Below, in pieces: positions 198 to 55,888 of a stretch of DNA of 64,000 nt (its first letter is position 1; every line of letters begins with the position of its first letter). Below the pieces are notes generated by a model. It did no database searches and was not told where the DNA came from. It saw only the letters and a list, made by a program, of their open reading frames with translations. Both the position numbers and the translations under genes were made by a program. Origin of the DNA: an uncultured Alphaproteobacteria bacterium (GTDB taxonomy: Bacteria > Pseudomonadota > Alphaproteobacteria > Rs-D84 > CACZYB01); the NCBI GenBank assembly GCA_934246625.1, contig CAKQHZ010000001.1, positions 434,964 through 498,963 on the forward strand. The letters are read 5' to 3'.

Positions 198-2633
198 CTA
201 TTTAAAAGAGTCCAAATAAACCTCGACAAATTTGTTTCCATGTAGTTTTCGTAATTCTTCGGCAAGAAGAACAGCCTTTCTTCCACTGTTGAATAATTGA
301 AGATAAGGACCAAGGCCAGATAAATCAATGTTTAAAATTACAGATTCATCGATGGTTGGTTTTCTGAAAAGAATTGCGTATTTTAAATCCTTGTATATTT
401 TTCCTTGAATAAAAGCCATTTCCTTTGGTGTTAGGTTCCAGCTGTCGTAATCTTCGGGACGTGCCTGAACGTTACGGAAAAAGATTTGTGTTTGACATTG
501 ACCACGGATTACTTCGCCTATACCAAGTTTATCCAAAACATTTGGTTGTTGGAAGGCAGCAAGGTATGCTTGACGTTTTTTACGACCTTCTTGAAGACCG
601 ATGACAAAATTCTGTCTGAAAACTGGATTTGCAAGCATAGGTGCAGTTTCATCAATGATAATTAAACTTGGGGCACCTGTTCTTCCAGTTATATTTTGTA
701 TTCGGTTCATAATATAACTTACAACCGCTGGAGCAAGAGTTTCATCTTCGAAAATATAAGTAAAATCAAAGGTATTGAAACGATTTGATAAATCAAGGCT
801 GTCGGCTTCGCTGTTAAAAAGTTGACCATATTGACTATCATCAACCCAACGGAAAAGTTCACGTCTCATTTTACCAGCTGGGGAAAAACAAGATTTGTAA
901 AGATTTTTAAGTGTTCTTTTGTTTGGTTCAAGATAATCAAATGCAGTTGTAACAGCACGAGCAATTTCGGCTTCGCTGTTTGCATCATCAACAAGTGTAA
1001 TTTCCTTTAACCAACGGCGAAGAAAAGCACGATTTTCTGGTGTATCATCTATACGGAAAGGATTTAGATAAGTTAATGTTCCACCCTTTTGAACATCTTT
1101 GTCCTTTGTATCGCCTTCAAAATTTATGTATGAACCGCCTGCGGAATATGTGAAAATTTCAGCACCTCTGTGGCGGTCGAAAAAGAATACCTTTAAATCA
1201 TCAAATCTTAAAGATTGACCTGCTAAAAAGGAATAAAGTGTTGTTTTACCTTGACCTGTTGGACCTATTGCAACAGTATGAGCAACGGCACTTTGTTCTT
1301 CGGATACATGAAATTCAAATTGATATGCGGTTCCTTGATATGTTGGGAATAGGGCAATAGGACCATTTCCCCAATCGCATTTTGATAATCCCTCTGGTTG
1401 ACGTTCAAAATTAAAACTTGTTGCAACGGCACGTGAAAGCATTTTATACATTCGTGGGTATTTATCATAAGTTGGAAATTGTGAAAACCAAGAGCTTTGA
1501 GCAACCCAACCTTCACGAACTGGTGTTAATCCATAAAGACGACATATTTTTTCAATTTCAAATACAGCTTTGTTTAAATCATCTTGGCTTTCAGCAGTAA
1601 TGAAAAAAGTTTCTGCATAATTTACTAATGTTTGATGGTCTTCATCATTTTGTTCAATAAGTGCAAGAGCATCATCAAATTGTCTTAATACATCATAAGA
1701 GAAGGTGCTTGAACTTGCCATTCTTCGTTGATTGATTAAAATCATTTGAGCTTTTGTTTTTGATATAGGAAAAAGGTTATGTAAGACAGTTATTTCATAA
1801 TTTAATGATAATATGTCAGATAACATTTGTTCATCAACTGTATTTGATTGTTGTTTTATACCAACAACAGCCATATATTTTTCCTTTGTTCCAGAACGAA
1901 ATCTTATGTATCCCTTATTTGAAAAGAATATTTCATCAGATACAATAAGTTCAGAAATATTGTCAAAAACCATATTTTCAGATTTTGGTTGTGGGCGTGA
2001 AATTGGATTTATTATGTGGGCAAAAAATGAAATAGGACTTTCGGATTTGCCATCTTCCTTTAATGCCTTTACACCGAAATTTGATAATATTGCTTCAAGA
2101 TTGCTTGAAGCAGTATCCAAATCCTTCATTGCGTCCTTTCGGTCATTTACAGAAATAACTATATAATGGGAGTTTTTGAAAATATCCTTTTGAGCATCGC
2201 TCCATTTTTCGGAAATTTCCTTTAATACCTTGTTTGTATTGTTTATGACTTTGTCGGTTTGAACCTTTTCACGAATAGTGAAAATACGGCTTTCTATACT
2301 TATTTCAGAAAGAGAATCAATCCATTTTTTTCTTTCCTCAAGTAATGATTGAATTGTTTCACGACGGGCAAATGCTATGCTTGTTCCAGTGATTTTGAAT
2401 ATTCTTACAAGTGAACCATTTGAGCATAAAATAGTTTTTTTATCGTTTAATAATTTTTCAAATGGAAGGTAATCAACAAGTCTTGTATCATAAGGACGTG
2501 GTAAAAATATATTTGATTTTTTTGATATTATTACAGTTATTATTAGTGCAACAGCAATTATGCCTAAAATCAAAGAAATTGTATAGGTGTTTGATAAATG
2601 TGTTAGCAATATTGTTGATAAATCAAAATTCAT
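198..2633 (-). CDS. virB4: Type IV secretion system ATPase VirB4/TrbE (811 aa)
   Basis: Length and N-terminal TM segment. Walker A GPTGQGKTT and VirB4-typical C-terminal motifs (IIDETAP, DxxG). Immediately follows virB3. Confidence 0.9.
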   Translation of the reverse strand: MNFDLSTILLTHLSNTYTISLILGIIAVALIITVIISKKSNIFLPRPYDTRLVDYLPFEKLLNDKKTILCSNGSLVRIFKITGTSIAFARRETIQSLLEERKKWIDSLSEISIESRIFTIREKVQTDKVINNTNKVLKEISEKWSDAQKDIFKNSHYIVISVNDRKDAMKDLDTASSNLEAILSNFGVKALKEDGKSESPISFFAHIINPISRPQPKSENMVFDNISELIVSDEIFFSNKGYIRFRSGTKEKYMAVVGIKQQSNTVDEQMLSDILSLNYEITVLHNLFPISKTKAQMILINQRRMASSSTFSYDVLRQFDDALALIEQNDEDHQTLVNYAETFFITAESQDDLNKAVFEIEKICRLYGLTPVREGWVAQSSWFSQFPTYDKYPRMYKMLSRAVATSFNFERQPEGLSKCDWGNGPIALFPTYQGTAYQFEFHVSEEQSAVAHTVAIGPTGQGKTTLYSFLAGQSLRFDDLKVFFFDRHRGAEIFTYSAGGSYINFEGDTKDKDVQKGGTLTYLNPFRIDDTPENRAFLRRWLKEITLVDDANSEAEIARAVTTAFDYLEPNKRTLKNLYKSCFSPAGKMRRELFRWVDDSQYGQLFNSEADSLDLSNRFNTFDFTYIFEDETLAPAVVSYIMNRIQNITGRTGAPSLIIIDETAPMLANPVFRQNFVIGLQEGRKKRQAYLAAFQQPNVLDKLGIGEVIRGQCQTQIFFRNVQARPEDYDSWNLTPKEMAFIQGKIYKDLKYAILFRKPTIDESVILNIDLSGLGPYLQLFNSGRKAVLLAEELRKLHGNKFVEVYLDSFK

Positions 2634-22301: not shown

Positions 22302-22336
22302 TATATTATATAATAACTTTATAAAGGAATTTGGAA

Positions 22337-23014
22337 ATGACAGATAAAAAATGGAAAAATAAGCATTATGAAAATACAGATGTTAAAAAAGAATCTGAGT
22401 GTGGTTGTAAGTGTGGTGAAAAATGTAATTGTGAAAAGGATAAATGTGCATCTGGAAATTGTGAATGTGGAAAGGATTGTAAGTGCCATCATGAACATCA
22501 TTGCAATGATTGTGGTGAAGGTGTTGAATGTCCAGATAATGGTTGTGAAAAGGAATTTGATAAAATTGAAAATTTAAAGGCTGAAGTTGCTTCTTGGCAA
22601 GAAAAGTATATAAGGACTTTGGCTGATTGTGAAAATGCAAAACGTCGTGCCGATATTGATGCAAAAAATATGATTGATTATAAAATCGCAAAATTTGCAA
22701 AGGATATGTTGCCTTTGGCTGATAATATTGCTTTGGCTTTGGCTTCTATTGAAGGAAAAGTTGATAGTAGTGTTATTGAAGGTTTGAAATCTATACAATC
22801 TGGTTTTATTAGCGCATTAGAAAAAAATAATATTTGCAAAATTAAAACTGTGGGTGAAAAACTTAATCCTCAGGAACATTGTGTTGTTATGCAAGTTGAT
22901 GACCCAAATGTAGAAGAAGGTGTTGTTGCACGTGAGCTTCAAGCTGGTTATAAGTTGGGTGATAAGGTTATTAGAGAAGCAATGGTCGCAACTTCAAATG
23001 GAAAAAAGAACTAA
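22337..23014 (+). CDS. grpE: Nucleotide exchange factor GrpE with an about 60-aa Cys/His-rich metallothionein-like N-terminal extension
   Basis: GrpE core ...ENLKAEVASWQEKYIRTLADCENAKRRADID... onward. The N-terminus is CGCKCGEKCNCEKDKCASGNCECGKDCKCHHEHHCNDCGEGVECPDNGC. SD AAAGGAA 6 nt before ATG 22337. The ORF track begins at an upstream TTG. Confidence 0.85.
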   Translation: MTDKKWKNKHYENTDVKKESECGCKCGEKCNCEKDKCASGNCECGKDCKCHHEHHCNDCGEGVECPDNGCEKEFDKIENLKAEVASWQEKYIRTLADCENAKRRADIDAKNMIDYKIAKFAKDMLPLADNIALALASIEGKVDSSVIEGLKSIQSGFISALEKNNICKIKTVGEKLNPQEHCVVMQVDDPNVEEGVVARELQAGYKLGDKVIREAMVATSNGKKN

Positions 23015-23416: not shown

Positions 23417-23501
23417 GGGAATGTGGCGGAATTGGTAGACGCGGCGGACTCAAAATCCGCTGGGGCGACCCTTGAGAGTTCGATTCTCTCCATTCCTACC
23501 A
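23417..23501 (+). tRNA. tRNA-Leu (anticodon CAA), class II, encoded CCA
   Basis: Hand-folded: acceptor GGGAATG/CATTCCT (G1-U72 wobble), anticodon stem GCGGA/TCCGC with loop CTCAAAA, long variable arm, T-arm GAGAG-TTCGATT-CTCTC. Confidence 0.85.
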
Positions 23502-23747: not shown

Positions 23748-24056
23748 ATGATGAAAAAATTTCTATTATTTTTTTCTATTTTATTTTGTGTATTTTTCAA
23801 AGTGAATTCTTCCGTTTATGCAACTGTAAGCAGCAATTCTCTTGAAAAAATTCTATTTCAATATTGTGTTCCAAAAGAAGGAAATTGTGATGTAAAAGCC
23901 ACATATAAAAACGGTAAATGTATTTGTCCTGGTGATAAATTATATATGGACAGAGAATGTTTTAAACCTGTTTGTCCTTCTGGAACTTATATCTATTATA
24001 GTAACGACACAGATTCTTGTGGTGCGGGAAATTACAGAACAAAAGTCAGAAATTAA
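23748..24056 (+). CDS. Small secreted Cys-rich protein (102 aa) with a QYCVPxEGNCDVKATY module
   Basis: Signal peptide. 10 Cys in about 75 mature residues. Paralogous to 43731..44147. Confidence 0.7.
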   Translation: MMKKFLLFFSILFCVFFKVNSSVYATVSSNSLEKILFQYCVPKEGNCDVKATYKNGKCICPGDKLYMDRECFKPVCPSGTYIYYSNDTDSCGAGNYRTKVRN

Positions 24057-24150: not shown

Positions 24151-25227
24151 ATGAACAATAAAAAATATATAATATCGGTAATAGGTGTGTTATCTTTTGT
24201 TGGAATTGCACACGCTGCTATTTTTCAATGCAGAACTTGTGAAGAGGGGACTTATGGTGATGGAACATCTGTAAGTTGCACAAAATGTCCGACTGGGGCA
24301 GTTTGTCCTGAGGGAACTGGAGCACCAATTTATTTATCAAATTATAAAGATAAGTTATTATCTGTATGTGGTGAGATAGGTAAGGAAATTGCAATAGATA
24401 CAGGTTTTTCTTCCAGTAATTTTGTTTCAGAAATGATTGATAAACAAAAAGTAAAAATAAATTATAGTGGAGATATAATTAAAAAGGGAGAAAGTGGTTA
24501 TAATTATGCAAGGGCATATTATGAAGTTAGTTGTTATGATCTTGATGGTTATTATGCAAGTAGTGGATATAAAGCTATTACAGATTTTATTCAAAGCAAA
24601 ATATGTAATGATGAATCAGAAGTAAAAAGTCATTTAGAACCTATGAGTTCATCATCAACTTTAACACCTGGAATATATAGGATTGATGTAGCTGGTGCCG
24701 GTGGTGGCGGTGCAGGTGGAAATGCTTGTGGATGGTGTTATGGAGCTGGTGGAGGTTATGGAGGTAATGGTGATTTGCAGACTAGATATATATATTTAGT
24801 TGATAATCAGCCTTATAATTATGTTGTTGGTGCTGGTGGTGGTAATGGTTGTGGTTCTGGTTGTAATCATCGTGGAGTAAATGGTAAGAAAGGTGGAACA
24901 TCATCCTTTACTTTGTTAGGAAATGTTTTTGAGGCATTAGGTGGAGATGGTGGAGAATCTGCACATAGTGGTTGTGATGTGTCTAATGGTAAAAATGGTG
25001 CTGCTGCTGGTAATGGTTTAGGTGGTGTTGGTGGTGAGAATAGATATGGTAACAAATGTGCTTATGATGGAAATACTGGTTGGGTAAAGATTTATCAAAT
25101 TGGTATGAGAAAAACCGGTTGTCCTTCTTTAAGACCATCTACTTCTTCTGGTGGATGTTCTTCAGGTGGTTATTTTGGCGGTTGCTCTACAGGTGGTTAT
25201 TTTGGTGGTTGCTCAGGAGGATACTGA
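24151..25227 (+). CDS. Secreted Cys/Gly-rich protein (358 aa) with an ephrin-receptor/TNFR-like CxxCxxGTY...CxxCPxG repeat, a glycine-rich domain and C-terminal GGYFGGCS repeats
   Basis: Signal peptide ...GIAHA. CRTCEEGTYGDGTSVSCTKCPTGAVCPEGTG. Gly-rich stretch VAGAGGGGAGG...GGGYGGNGD...VVGAGGGNG... C-terminal GGYFGGCSTGGYFGGCSGGY. Confidence 0.75.
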   Translation: MNNKKYIISVIGVLSFVGIAHAAIFQCRTCEEGTYGDGTSVSCTKCPTGAVCPEGTGAPIYLSNYKDKLLSVCGEIGKEIAIDTGFSSSNFVSEMIDKQKVKINYSGDIIKKGESGYNYARAYYEVSCYDLDGYYASSGYKAITDFIQSKICNDESEVKSHLEPMSSSSTLTPGIYRIDVAGAGGGGAGGNACGWCYGAGGGYGGNGDLQTRYIYLVDNQPYNYVVGAGGGNGCGSGCNHRGVNGKKGGTSSFTLLGNVFEALGGDGGESAHSGCDVSNGKNGAAAGNGLGGVGGENRYGNKCAYDGNTGWVKIYQIGMRKTGCPSLRPSTSSGGCSSGGYFGGCSTGGYFGGCSGGY

Positions 25228-29598: not shown

Positions 29599-30117
29599 TT
29601 ACTTATTTTTGTTATTCTTTTTGTTGTTTTTTAAAATTTCTTTTATCATTTCATCAGTGATGAGTAATTTTGCCTTTGCAATATTATCAAATTCAAATTC
29701 GATAGTTTGGTTTTTATCATCTAAAAATGTATCAAGAGAGATTGTTTGATTTTTAAGAGAGGCAATTTTACCCTTAAATCTTTTTCTTTCATCTTCAAGG
29801 TTGCGAGGCATTTTTAATTCAACCTTTATATCGCGACCAATGAATTTTTCAAAATCAGCAAGTTTTGTAAGTGGGCGGTCCATACCAGCAGAGCCAACTT
29901 CCAACATATATTTTTCGTTGATTAAATCTTCTACATCAAGGGTTGCAGAAAATGCACGTGATGCTTCTTCGCATTCGTCGATAGTAGGAGATGAACCATC
30001 TTTTTTTTCAAGCAAAATTTGAAGATTCTTCTTTGCATAGTTGACTTGGACAATATCCATATCGTAATCATTTGCAATAGGTGTAAGAATTTCTTCGATT
30101 TTTTCAGTTAATAACAT
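29599..30117 (-). CDS. rimP: Ribosome maturation factor RimP (172 aa)
   Basis: Position upstream of nusA. ...YMLEVGSAGMDRPL motif typical of RimP. Confidence 0.85.
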   Translation of the reverse strand: MLLTEKIEEILTPIANDYDMDIVQVNYAKKNLQILLEKKDGSSPTIDECEEASRAFSATLDVEDLINEKYMLEVGSAGMDRPLTKLADFEKFIGRDIKVELKMPRNLEDERKRFKGKIASLKNQTISLDTFLDDKNQTIEFEFDNIAKAKLLITDEMIKEILKNNKKNNKNK

Positions 30118-30267
30118 TTTTACCTCTTGATATTAAAAAAAGCGGGGCTTTTAAGCTCCCACTCTTTGATTTTCTTAAGAATGTGATTACATTATAATAC
30201 TTTTCTTTACAATTTCAAGAAAAAAATGTATAATATTGCCTATATTTATTAACTTAAGGAGAACGTT

Positions 30268-30873
30268 ATGAACGAAATGATGGATTTGGTTCCTATGGTT
30301 GTGGAACAAACAGGTAGAGGTGAAAGAAGTTATGATATTTTTTCACGTCTTTTGAAGGAAAGAATTATCTTTTTGAATGGTGAAGTAAATGATGCAAGTG
30401 CAAGTTTGATTGTTGCACAACTTTTGTTTTTGGAATCGGAAAATCCTGATAAAGATATTTTTATGTATATAAATTCTCCTGGTGGAGTAATTACTTCTGG
30501 TATGGCAATTTATGATACTATGCAATATATTAAACCTGATGTTGCAACTCTTTGCATTGGTCAAGCATGCTCTATGGGTTCATTTTTGCTTGCGGGTGGA
30601 GCAAAGGGAAAAAGATATGCTCTTCCAAATGCAAGAATTATGATACATCAACCTTTGGGTGGTTTTCAGGGGCAAGCAACAGATATTGAAATTCATGCAA
30701 AAGAAATTCTTAATATCAGAAAAAGAATGAATAGCCTTTATTCTTTCCATACAGGTAAGGATATTTGCGAAGTGGAAAAGGCTGTGGAACGTGATAATTT
30801 TATGAGTGCCGAAGATGCAAAGAATTTTGGTCTTATCGATTTTGTTGTTAAAAACAGAGGTGATATTAAGTAA
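30268..30873 (+). CDS. clpP: ATP-dependent Clp protease proteolytic subunit (201 aa)
   Basis: Catalytic Ser in GQACSMGS, His in IMIHQPLGG. Typical ClpP N-terminus ...[18 protein letters not shown]. Confidence 0.95.
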
Positions 30874-31648: not shown

Positions 31649-31774
31649 TTGCCTTTTTGTTTCAAAAATGATAAATTTTTTTTAGATGTAATGAATAATT
31701 ACATTTAGTATCAAGTGTATAGTGATACGGAGCTTTGAACGGCTTTTTTACTTACAAGGGTATGAATTTTGTGT

Positions 31775-31797
31775 GATACCGTTTGGTATCTTTTTTT
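31775..31797 (+). terminator. Second terminator-like hairpin (GATACC-GTTT-GGTATC plus T7) inside the long intergenic region
   Basis: 6-bp stem and 7 Ts, about 125 nt after the previous terminator. May close a short untranslated transcript. Confidence 0.4.
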
Positions 31798-31961
31798 ATA
31801 CCCAAAGCCCCAACCTTTGTTGGTTGGGGAGCTGTGGTTATACAACAGGAATATAGTCTTTGCTATAGTCTAAAAGCCTCAGAGTCATTGTAAGTATGAT
31901 TGTTCAACTGCCCGACCACTATCTTTGATATGTGGGTTTATTTTATTAAAGGGAGAAAAAT

Positions 31962-32528
31962 ATGAAAATCATGAACAAAAAATTACTTTTATTATATATG
32001 TCTTTATATCCTTGTATAACAAATGCAAATGTATATATGTGTTTGCGATGTCCTGTTGGAACTTATGGTGATGGAAAATCATCATATTGTTCACCTTGTC
32101 CAAAAATAGATGGAGCACATTATTTGGAAGATTCAAAGAATTGTGAATGGGAGTGTGATGAAGGTAAAGTTGTTGTTGCAAAATATGCGAATGGTGGAGG
32201 TTGTTGCACTGAACCAGCTAAACCAAAATGTCCTTCTGTTAAAGTTTATGTTTTCGGTAACTGTTCAGGTTCGGGTTCTCATGGAGGATCTTGTCAACTT
32301 CAATATTCAAAAACTTTGGAATGTGGAGAAAGTTTTCAAAATGATGGGAGTGCGACAAATACACCAAATGGACAATATGATTGTATAACGATGGCTTGTA
32401 GAAGCGGAGGTTTTGTTAAAAATATTAATGGAGAAATGTGGTGTTATAAAGACTCCTATGATATGAAAAAAAATAAAAATGGACGTCATTATGATAGGTC
32501 AGGTGATGCTAAATGTCTAAAAGAGTAA
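31962..32528 (+). CDS. Secreted Cys-rich protein (188 aa) with ephrin-receptor/TNFR-like CLRCPVGTYGDGKSSYCSPCP repeat
   Basis: Signal peptide. 25 Cys. SD AAAGGGAGA. Motif shared with 24151..25227 and 44255..44908. Confidence 0.7.
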   Translation: MKIMNKKLLLLYMSLYPCITNANVYMCLRCPVGTYGDGKSSYCSPCPKIDGAHYLEDSKNCEWECDEGKVVVAKYANGGGCCTEPAKPKCPSVKVYVFGNCSGSGSHGGSCQLQYSKTLECGESFQNDGSATNTPNGQYDCITMACRSGGFVKNINGEMWCYKDSYDMKKNKNGRHYDRSGDAKCLKE

Positions 32529-43435: not shown

Positions 43436-43730
43436 GTTGCTTAAATCTTTATTATGTAATATCATAAAATTAGATTTGGATTTATCCAAGTTTAGCGTCC
43501 ATAGGTGGACGTGGGACTGTCGTAAGTTCTTTATATACTGCCGTATGTTATTTTACATACGATCTTTGTCCCCACCTTTAGTGGGGAGTCTTTGGTGTAT
43601 GTCCAGAGGATATTTTTATATTCTTAAAGACCAAGGAAATCATCTTGCAGTATATATGATTTACGAACTCCCCGCCATTTATGTGATAAATGGGAAAAAT
43701 TTTGTGATACACAAAAAAGGGGAAGAAACC

Positions 43731-44147
43731 ATGAAAAACTTATCTAAAGTACTTTGTATTTGTGCGGGGGCTATCTCGGCAAATCCTATTAACCTTCAGG
43801 CTAAAACTTTGCTTGAAACCTTGACTCAATACTGTGTTCCGACGGTTGGCAACTGCGACAAAAAGGCTACCTACAATACCTCTGGCAACTATTGCGATTG
43901 TGCCAACATCAACAAATTCTATAACTCTTCGAATCGTTCTTGCGAGAACTGTATCCTCGGCTCTTTCGCAACCTCAGACTATAAAACTTGTGAGCCTATT
44001 CATTGCCCTGACGGCTATGTTGCGACTTTGATTTCCAAAGGGGCGTGTCCAGATGGCTATACTTTGCAACAAATCAATGTGGCTTCGGGTTGTGGCGAGG
44101 GTTATGCGTTGAAGAAGTATAATCCGGCGACGAAGAGTTTTAATTAA
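43731..44147 (+). CDS. Secreted Cys-rich protein (138 aa), paralog of 23748..24056 (QYCVPTVGNCDKKATY module) but with a GC-rich codon style
   Basis: SD AAGGGGA before ATG 43731. Signal peptide MKNLSKVLCICAGAISA. The ORF body is about 43% GC against a genome background of about 30%. The upstream part of track ORF 43434..44147 is rejected as leader. Confidence 0.7.
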   Translation: MKNLSKVLCICAGAISANPINLQAKTLLETLTQYCVPTVGNCDKKATYNTSGNYCDCANINKFYNSSNRSCENCILGSFATSDYKTCEPIHCPDGYVATLISKGACPDGYTLQQINVASGCGEGYALKKYNPATKSFN

Positions 44148-44254
44148 AGATATGGGCGGGAGTTTTTTATCATAGTCTTGCTTCCGCCCTCCCAGATTGG
44201 CACTTTTGAAGAGGGGGAGGTGTCAAGGAAGAAACACCCTCGAAGGAGAAAAAA

Positions 44255-44908
44255 ATGAAAACCATGAAGAAAAAGAAATTAGCGGTGATAGGGATAGCGG
44301 GAATGCTCTCTGCAACACCTGCCTCCGCTCAAACATTTTATCAATGTATGCCTGTAAAGTGTAAAGCAGGAGAGTATGTAAGTGGAAGTAGTTGTGAGCG
44401 TTGCACTGGAGGTTATCGTTGTCCAGGAGATAATAAAAGGTATGCGTGCACAGGCGAATGGGAATATGCAACACCAGGAAGTTCATACTGCTCTACCTTT
44501 GGCCCAAGTGATGTTCGTATTTGGGTTGGTGGTGGCTGTGCTGATAGAGATAGAAACGATCAAGCTCTAATGTCTAAGTTAGTGCCAATTACATCTTTTT
44601 CTACAAAGAAGGAAAATGGTCAAACAAAATATATTACAAACTTTAGTATTCTATCAGACAGAAACAAATATGATAGATCAGGTTTCTTTAATTGTTTAGA
44701 TAATAATTTTAAAAAAAAATATACTTCACAAGAACAATGGTGTAAATATGCAAGTATTACTCTTTTAACAACTCCAAATGCTGGTGGTTCATCAGACTTT
44801 ACCGTAAAACAATATAGTAAAGTATATGGAACGTTAGAGTTTCGATCTAGTTTTGAGTGTTTAAGATTAGGTCCAGGCGGTGGTTGTGCAAATAAATGTA
44901 ATAATTAA
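44255..44908 (+). CDS. Secreted Cys-rich protein (217 aa) with ephrin-receptor/TNFR-like CKAGEYVSGSSCERCTGGYRCPG repeat. Compositionally mosaic.
   Basis: Strong SD GAAGGAGA. Signal peptide ...ATPASA. The 5' 330 nt are about 43% GC and the 3' 320 nt about 25% GC. Confidence 0.7.
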   Translation: MKTMKKKKLAVIGIAGMLSATPASAQTFYQCMPVKCKAGEYVSGSSCERCTGGYRCPGDNKRYACTGEWEYATPGSSYCSTFGPSDVRIWVGGGCADRDRNDQALMSKLVPITSFSTKKENGQTKYITNFSILSDRNKYDRSGFFNCLDNNFKKKYTSQEQWCKYASITLLTTPNAGGSSDFTVKQYSKVYGTLEFRSSFECLRLGPGGGCANKCNN

Positions 44909-44947: not shown

Positions 44948-45352
44948 TTATTCCCAACCTGATGTATCGCTTAGACCACCGTATGTTTGTTGGATATTGT
45001 TTTTACCTTCTGGGTCAGCCATATATGATACGATAAAGCCAGCAACTCCAAGAAGAACAAGTGCAACGATTAACATAAATAATTTTTTCCAGTCAATGTC
45101 TCCTTTTTCGATAGCATTCCATGCATATCCTAAAAATGCAACAGCAGCAACAACGAATAATGCATTTCTTGTATATGCGAATAGTTGGCTTCCACGTTGT
45201 AAGAATCTTTCAAAAGGACCAGTTTTTCCGGTTGTTACAATCTCACTTCCAGTTTGTGCAAGAACATCAACAGGAACCATAAACATAAATGCAACTAAAA
45301 TACCAAGACATACAAGTGTAGATTTTTTAGTTAAAAATTTGAATATTGACAT
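44948..45352 (-). CDS. virB2: Candidate VirB2/TrbC-family T4SS pilin (134 aa)
   Basis: Long signal peptide ending VDVLA/QTG, then two hydrophobic helices separated by a short charged loop (…ALFVVAAVAFLGYAWNAI-EKGDIDWKK-LFMLIVALVLLGVAGFIVSYMA). This is VirB2-like topology and size. Confidence 0.5.
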   Translation of the reverse strand: MSIFKFLTKKSTLVCLGILVAFMFMVPVDVLAQTGSEIVTTGKTGPFERFLQRGSQLFAYTRNALFVVAAVAFLGYAWNAIEKGDIDWKKLFMLIVALVLLGVAGFIVSYMADPEGKNNIQQTYGGLSDTSGWE

Positions 45353-52258: not shown

Positions 52259-54352
52259 TTATTGTCCATATTTATGGTCAGGATTTGCATCTTCAATCAT
52301 TTGATCCATTTCATCTTCAATTCTTAACATAACATCGTTTTGAAGAAATACCATAATTCGTGTTCCCGCAGCAACGGTAAATGGAATGCTTGTTTGTGCA
52401 CTTTGGTCAATTAACTTTTGCATAGTTGTTTTCCAATTTTGCTCGATTTCCAATTTCATTTTATCCTTTGATGACATATTTGCTATTGTTTGTGTATCAG
52501 TTGGGGACCAGCCATATTCAGGTTGGTTTTCTGTATTAATTACGTCAGATACATTTTCTCCATCATCATTTATAAATGTATCTAATGCTTGATATGTTCC
52601 ATCGGAACGTTTTACACGTGTTACAAATTGAGAAGAAGTTGGGAATAATGCTTCCATTGCAACAGGAAGAACAGAATAAAGTAATGGTTTTACGAATAAA
52701 TCACGCATATATTCGGTATCGTTTTTACCTGCTACACCCTGACGACCTTGGGCATCTGCAGTATAGTTAACAACTTGAGTTAAATCAAATTCGGCACCAT
52801 CTGGACGTATAAGTCGGTCCCATTCTATGCTGATTTTTTCAATTTCTTGAAGACCTGCACCTTTAGGAGCGGTTGCTTTTCCAATAAGTTGTGAGCCAGC
52901 AGGGACAATAATTGTGCGTCCATCACCACCATAAACATTTCGTTCAACCGTTGCAACGGCAGGTGTTTCGTTTTCAAAATTTGTTCCATCATTTTCAGCA
53001 TAATCTATATTGCCGAAGTAAATTGGTCTGTTTAACACAGCTGGAATTGGTTTTGATTGACGAAGAACGTATCTTTCATCCTTTGGCATAGAAGATACTT
53101 GACCAGTGCTTGTTATAGTAAATGGAATAAGTGAGTTTTTTTGTTTGCCAATTATGTTTAATGGGTCGTCTGCCTTATATAAATCATAGTCAACATCTTT
53201 TCCACCATAACCTTCTTGTTTCACAGCAAGGCGGTTGTTCCAAACATCTTCGAAATTTGGATTAAAGTTTTCGGAATTGATTGTTTGCATTACCTCGTCC
53301 AAAACAGGAAGAGTTAGTTCAATTCTTTTTTCTTCGGATTTCTTTTTATCAAATACGGCACCCTTTCCAATGATTTTTCCAGTTGCAGTTTCAAGGACCA
53401 TTCCGTCTTCTTGAAGTGAGCCGATTATTTTTGAACAATTTGGTGAAAATACATCATTATTTGATTGAACCCAACCAATAAATGTTCCAGAAAAATCATA
53501 GGCTTTACTTGCATATTTCTTGCAATCGCTTGGATATACAGTTCTTTTTTCTTGTGCCTTTGGTGTGATTGCAGGAGCCACTGCATTTGTGAATTCTTCG
53601 ACTTCTTCCTCGTCTGCTGGTTCTATATCTTCATTATCATAGATTTCTTCATCATCATCTTCTTCAAAAAATTCATCTACTTTCTCTTGTTGTTGAGGTT
53701 GTGTTTGCACAGGTGCAGGTTTTTCTATTGAAGAGATTGATAAATTGACCTTGAAACTTTTTTCGGGTGAATTTTCGTTAGTATTATTTAGTTCATTATA
53801 TTTTATAAGTATAAATATATTTTTATTTTCAACCTTTGTAGGGGTCCAAACAACATTTATTATACATCCAGATTCTGGTGTAATTGATGCTCTTTCAGTG
53901 CAATCTTGGTCAAAGCCAAGTCCATTTACAGATGTTGATAATGAAATATTGTTAATTTTGATTGGATTATTTGCAACAGATAACATAATAGAGTTAAATG
54001 TTTCATTTCCAATAATTATATTTTCAAATTTTATATTTTGTGGGTCTGCAGTTAAAATAGGTGAAATATAAGTGAAATTTTGAGTTGTTTCCTTTTTTGT
54101 TTGTGCTGGGGTAGATGGAGTTTGCTCTATGGTTTCAATCTTTTTATTTGTTTGGTTTGCTGTGATAATAGCTCCTAATACAAAAATGCCAAGCATTACA
54201 AATGCGATAAAAAGCAAAATGATATTTGTCTTTTTTGTGGCAAGTTCAGATTTGCTTTTTTTATCGTTTGGAAGCATTTCCGCATTTTCTTCTGATGTTG
54301 AAGAAGATGGAGTATTTGTTGCTTTACCCTTTTTCTTAAATAAATCTACCAT
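52259..54352 (-). CDS. virB10: Type IV secretion system protein VirB10/TrbI with an unusually long (about 450 aa) N-terminal/periplasmic linker region (697 aa total)
   Basis: N-terminal cytoplasmic tail plus TM helix. Acidic/Pro-Gln-rich linker. C-terminal barrel motifs RTIIVPAGSQLIGKA...ISIEWDRLIRPDGAEFDL...DAQGRQGVAGKND...IPFTVAAGTRIMVFLQNDV. Confidence 0.75.
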   Translation of the reverse strand: MVDLFKKKGKATNTPSSSTSEENAEMLPNDKKSKSELATKKTNIILLFIAFVMLGIFVLGAIITANQTNKKIETIEQTPSTPAQTKKETTQNFTYISPILTADPQNIKFENIIIGNETFNSIMLSVANNPIKINNISLSTSVNGLGFDQDCTERASITPESGCIINVVWTPTKVENKNIFILIKYNELNNTNENSPEKSFKVNLSISSIEKPAPVQTQPQQQEKVDEFFEEDDDEEIYDNEDIEPADEEEVEEFTNAVAPAITPKAQEKRTVYPSDCKKYASKAYDFSGTFIGWVQSNNDVFSPNCSKIIGSLQEDGMVLETATGKIIGKGAVFDKKKSEEKRIELTLPVLDEVMQTINSENFNPNFEDVWNNRLAVKQEGYGGKDVDYDLYKADDPLNIIGKQKNSLIPFTITSTGQVSSMPKDERYVLRQSKPIPAVLNRPIYFGNIDYAENDGTNFENETPAVATVERNVYGGDGRTIIVPAGSQLIGKATAPKGAGLQEIEKISIEWDRLIRPDGAEFDLTQVVNYTADAQGRQGVAGKNDTEYMRDLFVKPLLYSVLPVAMEALFPTSSQFVTRVKRSDGTYQALDTFINDDGENVSDVINTENQPEYGWSPTDTQTIANMSSKDKMKLEIEQNWKTTMQKLIDQSAQTSIPFTVAAGTRIMVFLQNDVMLRIEDEMDQMIEDANPDHKYGQ

Positions 54353-54373
54353 AGAAAAAACCTCTATCTTCTT

Positions 54374-55888
54374 TTATTGAGTCCTTACAACACTGCATGG
54401 AACACTTTGAAGTGAAAGTTTTTGACATATTTCATCAGCAACTTCTATCTTTGCAAATGGTCCAATTCTTAGGCGATAAAATTCTCCGCCGTAATATCTT
54501 TGTTGTCCGATTTCATCAACACCACTTGTTTCAACAGAATAGAAAGGTGTGTATTCGTCAAGCCATGGAAGTTTTTCAGTTAATTCAAGCCATTTGTTTT
54601 CAAGGTCGACAACTGACTTTCCTTTAAAGACTTCTACACTTACGTTTTGTGAATTTTGTTTTACAAGTGGAACGTAGTGGTTTGGAAGCACAGATGCGTT
54701 TGTCTTTGTTTTTGGTAAAAGTGAGTTATATATAATTTCATTTTCTTGAGATGTATAAGGTTGCATACCTCCCATAGGATAACCACCAACCATATTTGTC
54801 ATAGGGTATGACAAGTTTTGTGGATACATATATGCACCAGTTGTCATATCTCCAGCATAGCCAGTTGTAAGCATCTCTTGTCCAGACATATAATTTCCAG
54901 ATAATGTTGCGTTTGCATCACCAATGTTTCCAGCAACTGCAACCAAATCTTGTGGAGGTGGTGGATTAGAGAGCAAGTATGGTTTTGAACGAAGTTTTAT
55001 ACAAACAATTCTTTGTCCGTTTCGTAAAACCAAATCGCCGATAGCTTCAACAACAAGAAGACGGCTTTGTGGACCTTCGGTTCGTGAACCTACAGGAGTT
55101 TCGCCACCTTCGACCAATAATGAAACTACAGGTCGTTGATTCATATTTAATGCCTTTTCACCGAAGTCAATGTATGTGAAAATTTGATCACGCCATACAC
55201 GTTCAGGTGCAATTACGTAATCATCAGGATTTGGAACGAATACATCTAAATCAAAACGAAATTCTGTTGGGTCAACATTTATACTTTTTATCCAACCGAA
55301 ATCTTCGCCTTCCCAATCATTATCACCCACATCTTTGAAACTTTGTCCGCCCATCATTGATTTTGATGATACAAAGTTGTTTGATGAACCAGATGAAGAT
55401 GCACCGTTGCTTCCTTTTCTGTATTTATATGGAACAGAAATATCAATTACAGAAGAGGTAATTTTTTCAGAATTAAGTGGTTCTGATTTTAGGTAAAAGA
55501 CATATTTATTTCCACTGTTTCCGAAAATGAATAGGTTTGTATCAGCCATTGCACGACCATCAACAGGAGAAATCATAAATGTATTTTTTTCAACTGGACG
55601 ACCATCAAAGAAATCCTTGTCCCCGACATAAGCGTCCTTTATGGTTTCCCATTCTGGGAAGTTAATGATTGTTAACATACCATCACGAAGTTTGATAGGC
55701 ATAACTGATCCTGGTTCCCATTGTATTTTTTGGAAACCTGGTTTTGTTTGGTTTTCTCCCATATTTTGCATTGGGTTATCCCATGCGTTTTGTGTTCCAA
55801 AACCAACCCCAGGAACAACTTCTTGAGAATAAACTGGAGCTGTTAAGAGTGAAAATATTAAAGGTAAAATTTTAAAAATATTTTTCAT
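54374..55888 (-). CDS. virB9: Type IV secretion system protein VirB9 fused to a C-terminal SPOR-like domain (504 aa)
   Basis: N-terminal VirB9/TrbG signature (IQWEPGSVMPIKLRDGMLTIINFP...TNLFIFGNSGNKYVFYLK). C-terminal 80 aa (...FYSVETSG...FYRLRIGPFAKIEVADEICQKL...VPCSVV) resemble a SPOR peptidoglycan-binding domain. Confidence 0.8.
   Translation of the reverse strand: MKNIFKILPLIFSLLTAPVYSQEVVPGVGFGTQNAWDNPMQNMGENQTKPGFQKIQWEPGSVMPIKLRDGMLTIINFPEWETIKDAYVGDKDFFDGRPVEKNTFMISPVDGRAMADTNLFIFGNSGNKYVFYLKSEPLNSEKITSSVIDISVPYKYRKGSNGASSSGSSNNFVSSKSMMGGQSFKDVGDNDWEGEDFGWIKSINVDPTEFRFDLDVFVPNPDDYVIAPERVWRDQIFTYIDFGEKALNMNQRPVVSLLVEGGETPVGSRTEGPQSRLLVVEAIGDLVLRNGQRIVCIKLRSKPYLLSNPPPPQDLVAVAGNIGDANATLSGNYMSGQEMLTTGYAGDMTTGAYMYPQNLSYPMTNMVGGYPMGGMQPYTSQENEIIYNSLLPKTKTNASVLPNHYVPLVKQNSQNVSVEVFKGKSVVDLENKWLELTEKLPWLDEYTPFYSVETSGVDEIGQQRYYGGEFYRLRIGPFAKIEVADEICQKLSLQSVPCSVVRTQ

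Follow-up and report, generated by a model that had tools for sequence, protein, structure and literature searches.

The stretch of DNA treated here (the window, 64,000 nt from an uncultured alphaproteobacterium) carries two genes for small secreted Cys-rich proteins, open reading frames (ORFs) A and B (Table 1), which alignment shows to be paralogs of one family, called here the QYCVP family after a motif of its N-terminal module. ORF B is the GC-rich one of the two, and at least five near-identical copies, itself included, lie at dispersed sites; comparison of these copies in short-read metagenome assemblies, the source of all loci considered (assemblies of this kind can homogenise or mis-join repeats), shows them to undergo concerted evolution by ectopic gene conversion. 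An earlier note on this DNA had taken the discordant composition of the pair for the signature of a xenolog, the same family having entered the genome again from a GC-richer donor. The second entry gives way to a different picture, in which ORF B spreads within the genome by gene conversion, and no GC-richer donor was found; the sequences closest to ORF B are AT-rich alleles from within the same species. As to the rise in GC itself, our preference, tentative and somewhat short of probable, is for a GC bias that arose in situ in association with recombination, rather than for import from a GC-richer relative with subsequent spread in the genome.

Two paralogs with different codon styles

Over their N-terminal modules ORF A and ORF B share 18 of 45 residues (40%; BLASTP E = 8e-9), their C-terminal CPxG...CG...TK..N portions also align in the family alignments, where ORF A looks like ORF B minus its middle, and a family profile search recovers small secreted Cys-rich proteins in 90 clusters at 50% identity; the two genes thus have more in common than the spacing of their Cys residues, as the earlier note had supposed. 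Both N-termini are basic and then hydrophobic, by inspection consistent with a Sec signal peptide. The codon-for-codon alignment with differences at third positions was likewise confirmed: over the 17 codons of the QYCVP..KATY core 13 residues are identical in both proteins, 10 of these 13 codons differ synonymously, and at nine of the ten ORF A has A or T where ORF B has G or C.

ORF A follows the AT-rich style of the host, with a GC content at third codon positions (GC3) of 0.167, whereas ORF B (GC 0.435, in agreement with the roughly 43% given earlier; GC3 0.471) lies outside the normal gene distribution of the window: the 61 other ORFs have a GC3 of 0.206 ± 0.037 with a maximum of 0.298, which places ORF B at z = 7.1, and the highest value among 1153 in-frame 138-codon stretches of other window genes is 0.326. 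Its codon-usage score against the window genes is -1.32, compared with -0.86 ± 0.07, a distance of about 6.5 standard deviations (SD). The third positions of ORF B are composed of A (A3) 0.12, T (T3) 0.41, C (C3) 0.26 and G (G3) 0.21, 12 codons are of the form NCG, and the codons GGA, ACA, ATA and AGA are absent.

Each of the two ORFs is the first gene of a two-gene cassette, whose second gene (the partner) encodes a larger secreted Cys-rich protein. In cassettes of the B type the order is a structured leader RNA, the small QYCVP protein, a structured spacer and a secreted Cys-rich protein, variable but with a signal peptide that is constant. High GC3 is limited to the coding sequence of ORF B, where it amounts to 0.45-0.65 downstream of the signal-peptide codons; the partner gene is GC-rich as well over its first 20 codons, but from the spacer into the first partner codons the sequence is 100/100 identical in the AT-rich cassette of locus L029 (loci are numbered L, family members P). 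Among the members, GC3 is 0.17 in ORF A, 0.225 in P0009, 0.21 in P0005, 0.13 in P0042 and 0.36 in the chimera P0002; it is 0.45-0.49 in the B copies (0.43 in L043, where the ORF call begins upstream in the leader), 0.42 in P0044 and 0.44 in P0043, the gene flanking P0043 having 0.28.

Concerted evolution of the dispersed B copies

The window and at least four other chromosomal loci with unrelated flanks share a repeat block of roughly 0.7 kb, which extends from the ribosome-binding site (RBS) over ORF B and its spacer and takes in 40-90 codons at the start of the partner gene (93-100% DNA identity overall, 93-98% between the window and the other loci); the loci are fabZ-virB2 (window), rne, mltA-fba, dsbA-rpsD and Mtd_N-traT. 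Each of them has a variable gene of 217-249 aa at a constant +108 nt, and leader, RBS, start codon and the signal peptides of both genes are present in all B copies examined. The exact ORF B protein occurs at four loci in one sample (ERZ4559405), including twice on a single 305-kb contig (NODE_38), and a 715-kb contig (NODE_2) holds three cassettes: B at the fabZ locus, B at the Mtd locus and the AT-rich P0009 at recR-mreB. Several contigs end 390-1050 nt past fabZ, in or just beyond the leader-ORF B region. The ends of the repeat are ragged and vary with the locus pair (left -19, -147, -225 or -399; right +571 to +799); terminal repeats and mobility genes were not found in the B repeat.

Identity between copies from different loci of one sample is 99.8-100%, some within-sample pairs being only 98.6% identical, whereas copies at the same locus in different strains are 97.1-97.8% identical at three of the four loci compared and 99.1% identical at dsbA (L003 vs L004). 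Polymorphisms are common to several loci in a mosaic pattern, and variants of ORF B with 138 and 145 aa alternate at the same locus. Two strains can be compared at the locus of the window itself: identity between the window and L020 is 99% in the flanks, 99.7% in the leader, 100% in the spacer, 92.6% in ORF B, which has a 21-nt variant block (indel columns counted), and 86.5% in the variable gene, with 0.19 synonymous (dS) and 0.12 nonsynonymous (dN) substitutions per site against a dS of 0.02 in fabZ. At the dsbA locus the flanks of L003 and L029 differ at 6 of about 1,450 aligned positions and the cassettes are different: L003 has the GC-rich B allele, and L029 has the 212-aa AT-rich allele P0005 together with a different partner gene, while the same L029 contig also carries B at the fabZ locus. 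Recombinant products occur too. Chimeras are P0002, P0006 (the N-terminus of ORF B fused to a partner C-terminus) and the deletion remnant L045:2957-3590, which keeps the leader and in which two internal deletions have joined ORF B to the partner's 3' end, and P0009 contains a B-like patch in codons 40-55.

It is the combination of a between-locus identity within genomes that exceeds the same-locus identity between strains, of ragged tract ends and of the allele replacement at dsbA which shows concerted evolution of the B copies. The mobility ascribed to the family in the earlier note is real in a recombinational sense, alleles being swapped between strains with about 100% identical flanks, and the family is fast-evolving. 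Ectopic gene conversion keeps the B copies at the five or more loci near-identical, the leader/RBS and spacer/signal-peptide segments being its likely homology arms, and the B allele class overwrites older AT-rich alleles, both states being present at dsbA among conspecific strains; conversion and allele exchange together would generate variation between strains. At least eight cassette loci can be counted per species group (five intact B, the chimeric P0002, P0009 and ORF A; the P0044 locus would be the ninth), and the allele turnover between strains at these loci is extreme.

At the fabZ locus, the only one surveyed across strains, five of ten places have a cassette, one holds the remnant L045, four contigs end before the site is readable, and no empty site was found among the places examined; L045 had been considered as an empty site and was rejected as such, since it is a double-deletion remnant. 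No integrase or transposase was found among the called neighbours of the five intact-B loci; in L030/L031 a gene for a XerC/D-like integrase precedes the chimeric P0002 copy by about 1.7 kb. A tblastn search of plasmids and phages gave no matches. The contig with P0044 and P0002 is tied to the species of the window only through a B-type tract of 98% identity, and window positions 29599..30873, considered as the infC-LOG locus of L038, were rejected by tblastn.

In two loci, L021 (Mtd_N left flank and rne-locus right flank) and L044 (fabZ left and fba right), flanks are joined through the B repeat, and these flank swaps are either real rearrangements by recombination between copies or assembly chimeras. 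One B copy has a gene for a 376-aa Mtd_N-domain protein divergently upstream (L006:3234-4364 and L019:1118-2248, minus strand). Mtd_N is the N-terminal domain of the major tropism determinant and is associated with diversity-generating retroelements (DGRs). This B copy was considered as a DGR target and rejected, as neither a pair of template and variable repeats (TR/VR) nor a reverse transcriptase was found within about 5 kb of it.

Leader RNA and spacer

The leader was found not only in the window but also upstream of the cassettes in L001-L006, L029 and L038. Two sequence types can be distinguished, type 2 often having a 66-nt insertion just before the RBS. An alignment of eight leader sequences contains 54 base pairs, of which 20 have compensatory changes; 93.6% of its cells are paired compared with 36-44% in slid-partner controls, and the observed covariation was reached by 0 of 500 shuffles. 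A search with the Rfam covariance models returned nothing relevant at E values up to 10. The leader holds an internal terminator-like hairpin with a U-run and, near the Shine-Dalgarno sequence GGGGAAG, the element AACUNCCCG, which by its position opposite GGGGAAG is a possible anti-Shine-Dalgarno element.

The spacer is GC-rich (0.41-0.48) and conserved also in AT-rich cassettes (L017:3418-3528, L029:3640-3749 and L038:3424-3547). By eye, the stem of its hairpin is altered on both sides between cassettes, as in GGGCGGGAG/CTTCCGCCC, GGGTGGAAG/CTTCCACCC and GGGGTTGAAG/CTTCAACC. Despite differing ORFs on either side the spacers of L003 and L029 are identical at 100/100 positions, and those of the window and L020 at 107/107. 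The spacer may be a processing or coupling element and may also serve as a recombination arm.

Origin of the GC-rich composition

The substitutions that separate ORF B from its relatives have a direction. Between B and the AT-rich paralogs, changes from A or T to G or C (W-to-S) amount to 72-88 against 26-32, and among the AT-rich paralogs themselves the changes are symmetric. From P0005 to B, synonymous third positions changed from A to G 11 times, from A to C four times, from T to C 12 times and from T to G twice, the reverse direction being represented only by four C-to-T changes, and in the same comparison A went to T five times and T to A not once; synonymous W-to-S changes are thus similar at A sites (15) and at T sites (14). 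The only proteins at least 59% identical to ORF B belong to the same species group, the closest of them being the AT-rich alleles P0005 and P0009 in the same genomes (GC3 0.21-0.23), and near-relative genomes, with 72-88% MnmG identity, are all AT-rich (mnmG GC3 0.16-0.29). The amino-acid composition of ORF B stays like that of an AT-rich genome, with fractions of 0.21 for Gly, Ala, Arg and Pro (GARP) and 0.34 for Phe, Tyr, Met, Ile, Asn and Lys (FYMINK). Because the bias tracks the multi-copy class, W-to-S changes at A and at T sites are about equally many, the closest relatives and all near-relative genomes are AT-rich and the amino-acid composition has barely shifted, we give the in-situ bias preference: GC-biased gene conversion (gBGC) would act on the most frequently converted tract, and the GC-rich, A3-poor composition of the B class would arise and persist inside this lineage. 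By our own calculation a modest bias suffices, since with an AT mutation bias of about 4 a population-scaled B of about 1.3 moves the equilibrium GC3 from 0.2 to 0.47. By neighbour joining, the three lineages with high GC (B, P0043 and P0044) come out polyphyletic, and they have no common synonymous states (third-position identity 0.3-0.5); being saturated synonymously and nevertheless all located in AT-rich contexts, they argue for a persistent in-situ force. A more ambitious formulation, possible but rather doubtful, is that these loci constitute a locus-level natural experiment, in which bacterial gBGC has more than doubled GC3 (0.21 to 0.47) in an allele class converted among at least five loci of a genome with 32% GC, the single-copy paralogs having remained AT-rich; these loci would also make up an undescribed variable secreted-protein system, with a constant small Cys-rich and a hypervariable subunit, under a new 280-nt leader RNA.

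A number of observations weigh against an in-situ bias. ORF B has an excess of A-to-T changes (5-9, compared with 0-1 from T to A), and its 12 NCG codons are rare in the host, as in a foreign codon dialect. P0044 is GC-rich but apparently occupies a single locus, and its C3 of 0.37 at a G3 of 0.05 means that only C3 is raised, which strand-symmetric gBGC does not predict. Intermediates at 70-90% identity between B and the AT-rich alleles are missing, and dN between B and P0005 is 0.32, so that the B lineage must be old. Polymorphism among the B copies amounts to about 25 usable sites, unpolarised and too few for a skew of the frequency spectrum (five apparent singletons of the window at -19 to -6 are indel misalignment), and the property of short-read assemblies to homogenise or mis-join repeats bears on this reading as well.

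The most serious competitor, unlikely in our view but clearly ahead of the others, is a xenologous allele from an unsampled GC-richer relative, imported through homologous recombination by way of the leader and spacer arms and then spread by gene conversion. It would account for a codon usage 6.5 SD off that of the host, with the NCG codons, the A3 of 0.12 and the missing GGA, ACA, ATA and AGA, for the coincidence of the divergent GC-rich tract with the coding sequence between 100% conserved arms, for the A-to-T excess, for the identity gap between 93% and 70% without intermediates and for a dN of 0.32 to the nearest allele; moreover, distant family members exist in GC-richer hosts (GARP up to 0.38) and the cassettes are demonstrable hot-spots of allele exchange. 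However, searches of 5.8 billion clusters and of 1.84 billion representatives turned up no donor, family members whose hosts are GC-richer score only weakly against the profile (E 6e-10 to 7e-4), all relatives with 72-88% MnmG identity are AT-rich, and the amino-acid composition is hardly shifted. Three GC-rich lineages with different third-position styles would also need separate imports.

Selection on synonymous sites, by which host-rare GC-ending codons would slow or tune the translation of a disulfide-rich secreted protein, stabilise the mRNA or aid the accuracy of Cys, Asn and Tyr decoding, is considerably less probable. That C3 peaks in the Cys-rich core of three independent lineages (0.43 in B, 0.40 in P0043 and 0.47 in P0044), and that P0044 raises only C-ending codons (TGC 9/11, AAC 9/12), would fit such selection, but the AT-rich paralogs encode the same conserved residues without this bias, housekeeping genes of the host that are likely highly expressed have a low GC3, excess mRNA structure is lacking, and the core is rich in two-fold degenerate amino acids with codons ending in a pyrimidine, so that any rise in GC would appear there as C3. 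It is very improbable that assemblers have collapsed or mis-joined one repeat and thereby faked the multi-locus identity and the flank swaps. Every locus does come from a short-read assembly, L021 and L044 join flanks of different loci, and many short contigs consist of the repeat alone; yet the same five loci recur across independent samples and assemblers, within-sample copies are not all identical (98.6% between pairs), the homology ends at different points in different loci, the breaking of contigs at the repeat itself implies multiple copies, and the GC anomaly belongs to the window sequence itself. Hardly credible is, finally, an adenine-directed retro-mutagenesis, in which a DGR-like reverse transcriptase would copy the cassette through RNA and erode adenines of the sense strand. 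The low sense-strand A3 (0.12) at an unchanged T3 (0.41), 20 synonymous losses of A without gains and the Mtd_N-domain gene next to one B copy speak for it; against it, L006 contains no TR/VR pair, no reverse transcriptase gene was called at any locus, a comparably large T-to-C excess is left unexplained, and the co-converted 5' end of the partner is not depleted of A.

Three further candidates were tried and rejected. RNA structure does not explain the GC richness, ORF B plus spacer folding no better than shuffled sequence (z = +0.09). Translational optimisation as the main cause is at odds with the GC3 of about 0.15-0.21 in the genes of the likely highly expressed S4, AtpD, MreB and FBA. An overlapping antisense ORF cannot account for the depletion of A3, as no minus-strand ORF of at least 40 aa lies across 43731..44147.

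Cassettes, the ORF A locus and the protein family

The features of the two cassettes and of related elements in the window are compiled in Table 1.

Table 1 Features of the window discussed in the text
Feature	Position	Strand	Remarks
tRNA-Leu(CAA)	23417..23501	+	246 nt upstream of ORF A; neighbour only
ORF A	23748..24056	+	102-aa small secreted Cys-rich QYCVP-family protein
Partner gene of ORF A	24151..25227	+	358 aa; signal peptide, N-terminal CxxC..GxY Cys-rich module, Gly-rich domain
Structured leader, type 2	31671..31961	+	second copy, directly before 31962..32528; nhmmer E = 6e-68
Third Cys-rich secreted partner-type gene	31962..32528	+	188 aa; directly after a leader, no small QYCVP ORF between
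Structured 5' leader, type 1	43456..43730	+	about 280 nt, precedes ORF B; minimum free energy z = -6.2; nhmmer E = 5e-47
Dispersed repeat block	43713..44515	+	RBS through ORF B and spacer into partner 5' end; right end 44371 to 44515 by locus pair
ORF B	43731..44147	+	138-aa small secreted Cys-rich QYCVP-family protein; GC-rich allele class
Conserved spacer of the B cassette	44148..44254	+	GC 0.48; hairpin GGGCGGGAG..CTTCCGCCC
Partner gene of ORF B	44255..44908	+	217 aa; signal peptide and QTFYQCMPVKC start constant, rest hypervariable

The partner gene follows the small gene after 94 nt in the A cassette and after 107 nt in the B cassette, and the N-termini of the two partners align with each other. 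Homologs of ORF A with 57-96% identity occur at the syntenic position upstream of infB in L032 and L033, and this synteny holds in related strains and one related species; the A cassette is thus an old, single-locus, vertically inherited cassette, host-like in composition. A copy of the B-type leader was not detectable in it, and its spacer is AT-rich. The tRNA-Leu(CAA) gene beside ORF A gave no evidence of use as an integration site. In Pfam the ORF A partner matches Gly_rich_2 (E = 1.3e-4) and, weakly, NCD3G. Compared with its ortholog in a near-identical strain (L032:4401-5480) it has about 12 nonsynonymous changes and about one synonymous change (dN/dS about 5), counts which are small but hint at diversifying selection on this gene. 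The partner family of ORF B comprises 50 clusters at 90% identity, many of them matching only the first 23-47% of the protein. The third partner-type gene of the window is preceded by a leader without a small QYCVP gene, so a cassette can exist without the small gene.

The family appears to be confined to uncultured AT-rich Alphaproteobacteria and their relatives, and where sample labels are readable they refer to Hadza gut metagenomes. In Pfam, ORF A has no match and ORF B matches only cEGF (E = 0.034), with nothing above the gathering threshold. A family alignment of 56 sequences, with members down to 23% identity to ORF B, was used for an AlphaFold model of ORF B (pLDDT 83.5), which predicts a ladder of disulfide-rich beta-hairpins. 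Ephrin_rec_like (PF07699) gives weak matches in 15 of the 56 members (best E = 1.5e-5), and in P0070 the YCVP module is fused to canonical CxxCPxGxY repeats. The best structural neighbours of the model, all non-significant, are receptors of the tumour necrosis factor receptor (TNFR) type (4-1BB, OX40), the Cys-rich domain of mGluR, ELAPOR1 and Meckelin; a profile search of the PDB gave only spurious matches to L32 zinc ribbons. We infer that the cassettes may encode the constant small and the diversifying large subunit of a putative surface or secreted host-interaction set.

Comparison with known systems

Variable surface families driven by gene conversion are known from Anaplasma (msp2/p44), Neisseria (pilE/pilS and opa) and Borrelia (vls). 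The cassettes resemble such families in their dispersed paralogs, in the conserved segments that flank variable ones, in mosaic tracts, in hypervariability between strains and in their secreted or surface products. The PE/PPE proteins of M. tuberculosis have also been treated as a variable family driven by gene conversion (PMC13061034). Unlike in msp2, pilE/pilS and vls, each B cassette is a complete operon and there is no single expression site fed by silent cassettes; what is homogenised is the whole conserved small gene, with the variable gene downstream, and variation is known here between strains only. The protein family itself is unrelated to the known variable surface families and is unannotated.

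Mammalian histone and Hsp70 paralogs are comparison cases for gBGC. For bacteria, gBGC was proposed by Lassalle et al. 2015 (PMC4450053). That study reportedly describes an association between recombination and GC3, with a genome-wide effect that is said to be far smaller than the shift from 0.21 to 0.47 seen here in a single 0.4-kb tract. The elevated GC3 in the most converted class and the synonymous W-to-S excess of similar size at A and T sites are as in gBGC; the A-to-T excess and the single-locus paralog P0044, enriched in C3 only, are unlike its expectation, so that the resemblance in strand symmetry is partial. With a xenolog islet ORF B has the atypical GC3 and codon usage and the sharp compositional boundaries in common, but the five intact-B loci lack mobility genes, a donor is not known and the nearest homologs are native and AT-rich, and no strain whose contig extends far enough has the cassette locus unoccupied; ORF B fails three of four defining tests of a classical xenolog. 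As to the fold, the CxxCPxGxY-type spacing and the modelled ladder of small disulfide-bonded beta-hairpins would be reminiscent of Ephrin_rec_like (PF07699) and TNFR repeats, from which the family differs in the lack of a significant match and in its N-terminal L..L..YCVP..C..KATY module, for which there is no described counterpart.

Genomic setting

The window has a GC content of 32%, and its housekeeping genes are interspersed with homologs of VirB4, VirB2, VirB9 and VirB10. These type IV secretion genes (VirB4, VirB2/TrbC pilin, VirB10 and VirB9; 198..2633, 44948..45352 and 52259..55888) are scattered along the chromosome in a layout which we take to resemble that of Rickettsiales, and the VirB2 gene directly adjoins the B cassette. 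The closest MnmG sequences (84-88% identity) are from uncultured metagenome-assembled genomes (MAGs), one of them labelled Alphaproteobacteria, while the MnmG of Kiloniella is 56% identical. Long contigs that encode proteins identical to window proteins come from metagenomes whose record labels name the Hadza gut and from further metagenome assemblies without a stated source. The YCVP pattern did not turn up in a scan of GTDB species representatives, a set from which the species of the window, or its repeat contigs, must therefore be missing; a scan of JGI metagenomes gave only two loci.

Third-position skew is strand-dependent across the window: genes on the plus strand have more G3 than C3 (0.17 vs 0.04 in atpD), those on the minus strand more C3 than G3 (0.17 vs 0.08 in ileS). 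The cumulative GC skew climbs monotonically, which places the window on one replichore with the plus strand leading. The ORF at 22331..23014 has an N-terminal extension of about 70 aa that is extremely rich in Cys and His and metallothionein-like (CGCKCGEKCNCEKDKCASGNCECGKDCKCHHEHHCNDCGEG...); for the syntenic gene of L032 there is a GrpE match in Pfam.

Biological meaning

Undescribed so far are a clade-specific family of secreted disulfide-rich proteins and a leader RNA without an Rfam match, and the mechanism at the cassette loci resembles that of known gene-conversion families. An outlier in GC3 is usually read as horizontal gene transfer; the one described here is the homogenised member among dispersed paralogs, and its closest kin are native AT-rich alleles. 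If the rise in GC is driven by recombination, the B copies would provide an exceptionally clear example of biased gene conversion in a bacterium, and they would then be a warning both for composition-based calls of horizontal transfer and for the binning of MAGs, as contigs break at these repeats. The protein family, the cassette loci and the leader RNA are plausible host-interaction determinants in poorly known gut Alphaproteobacteria.

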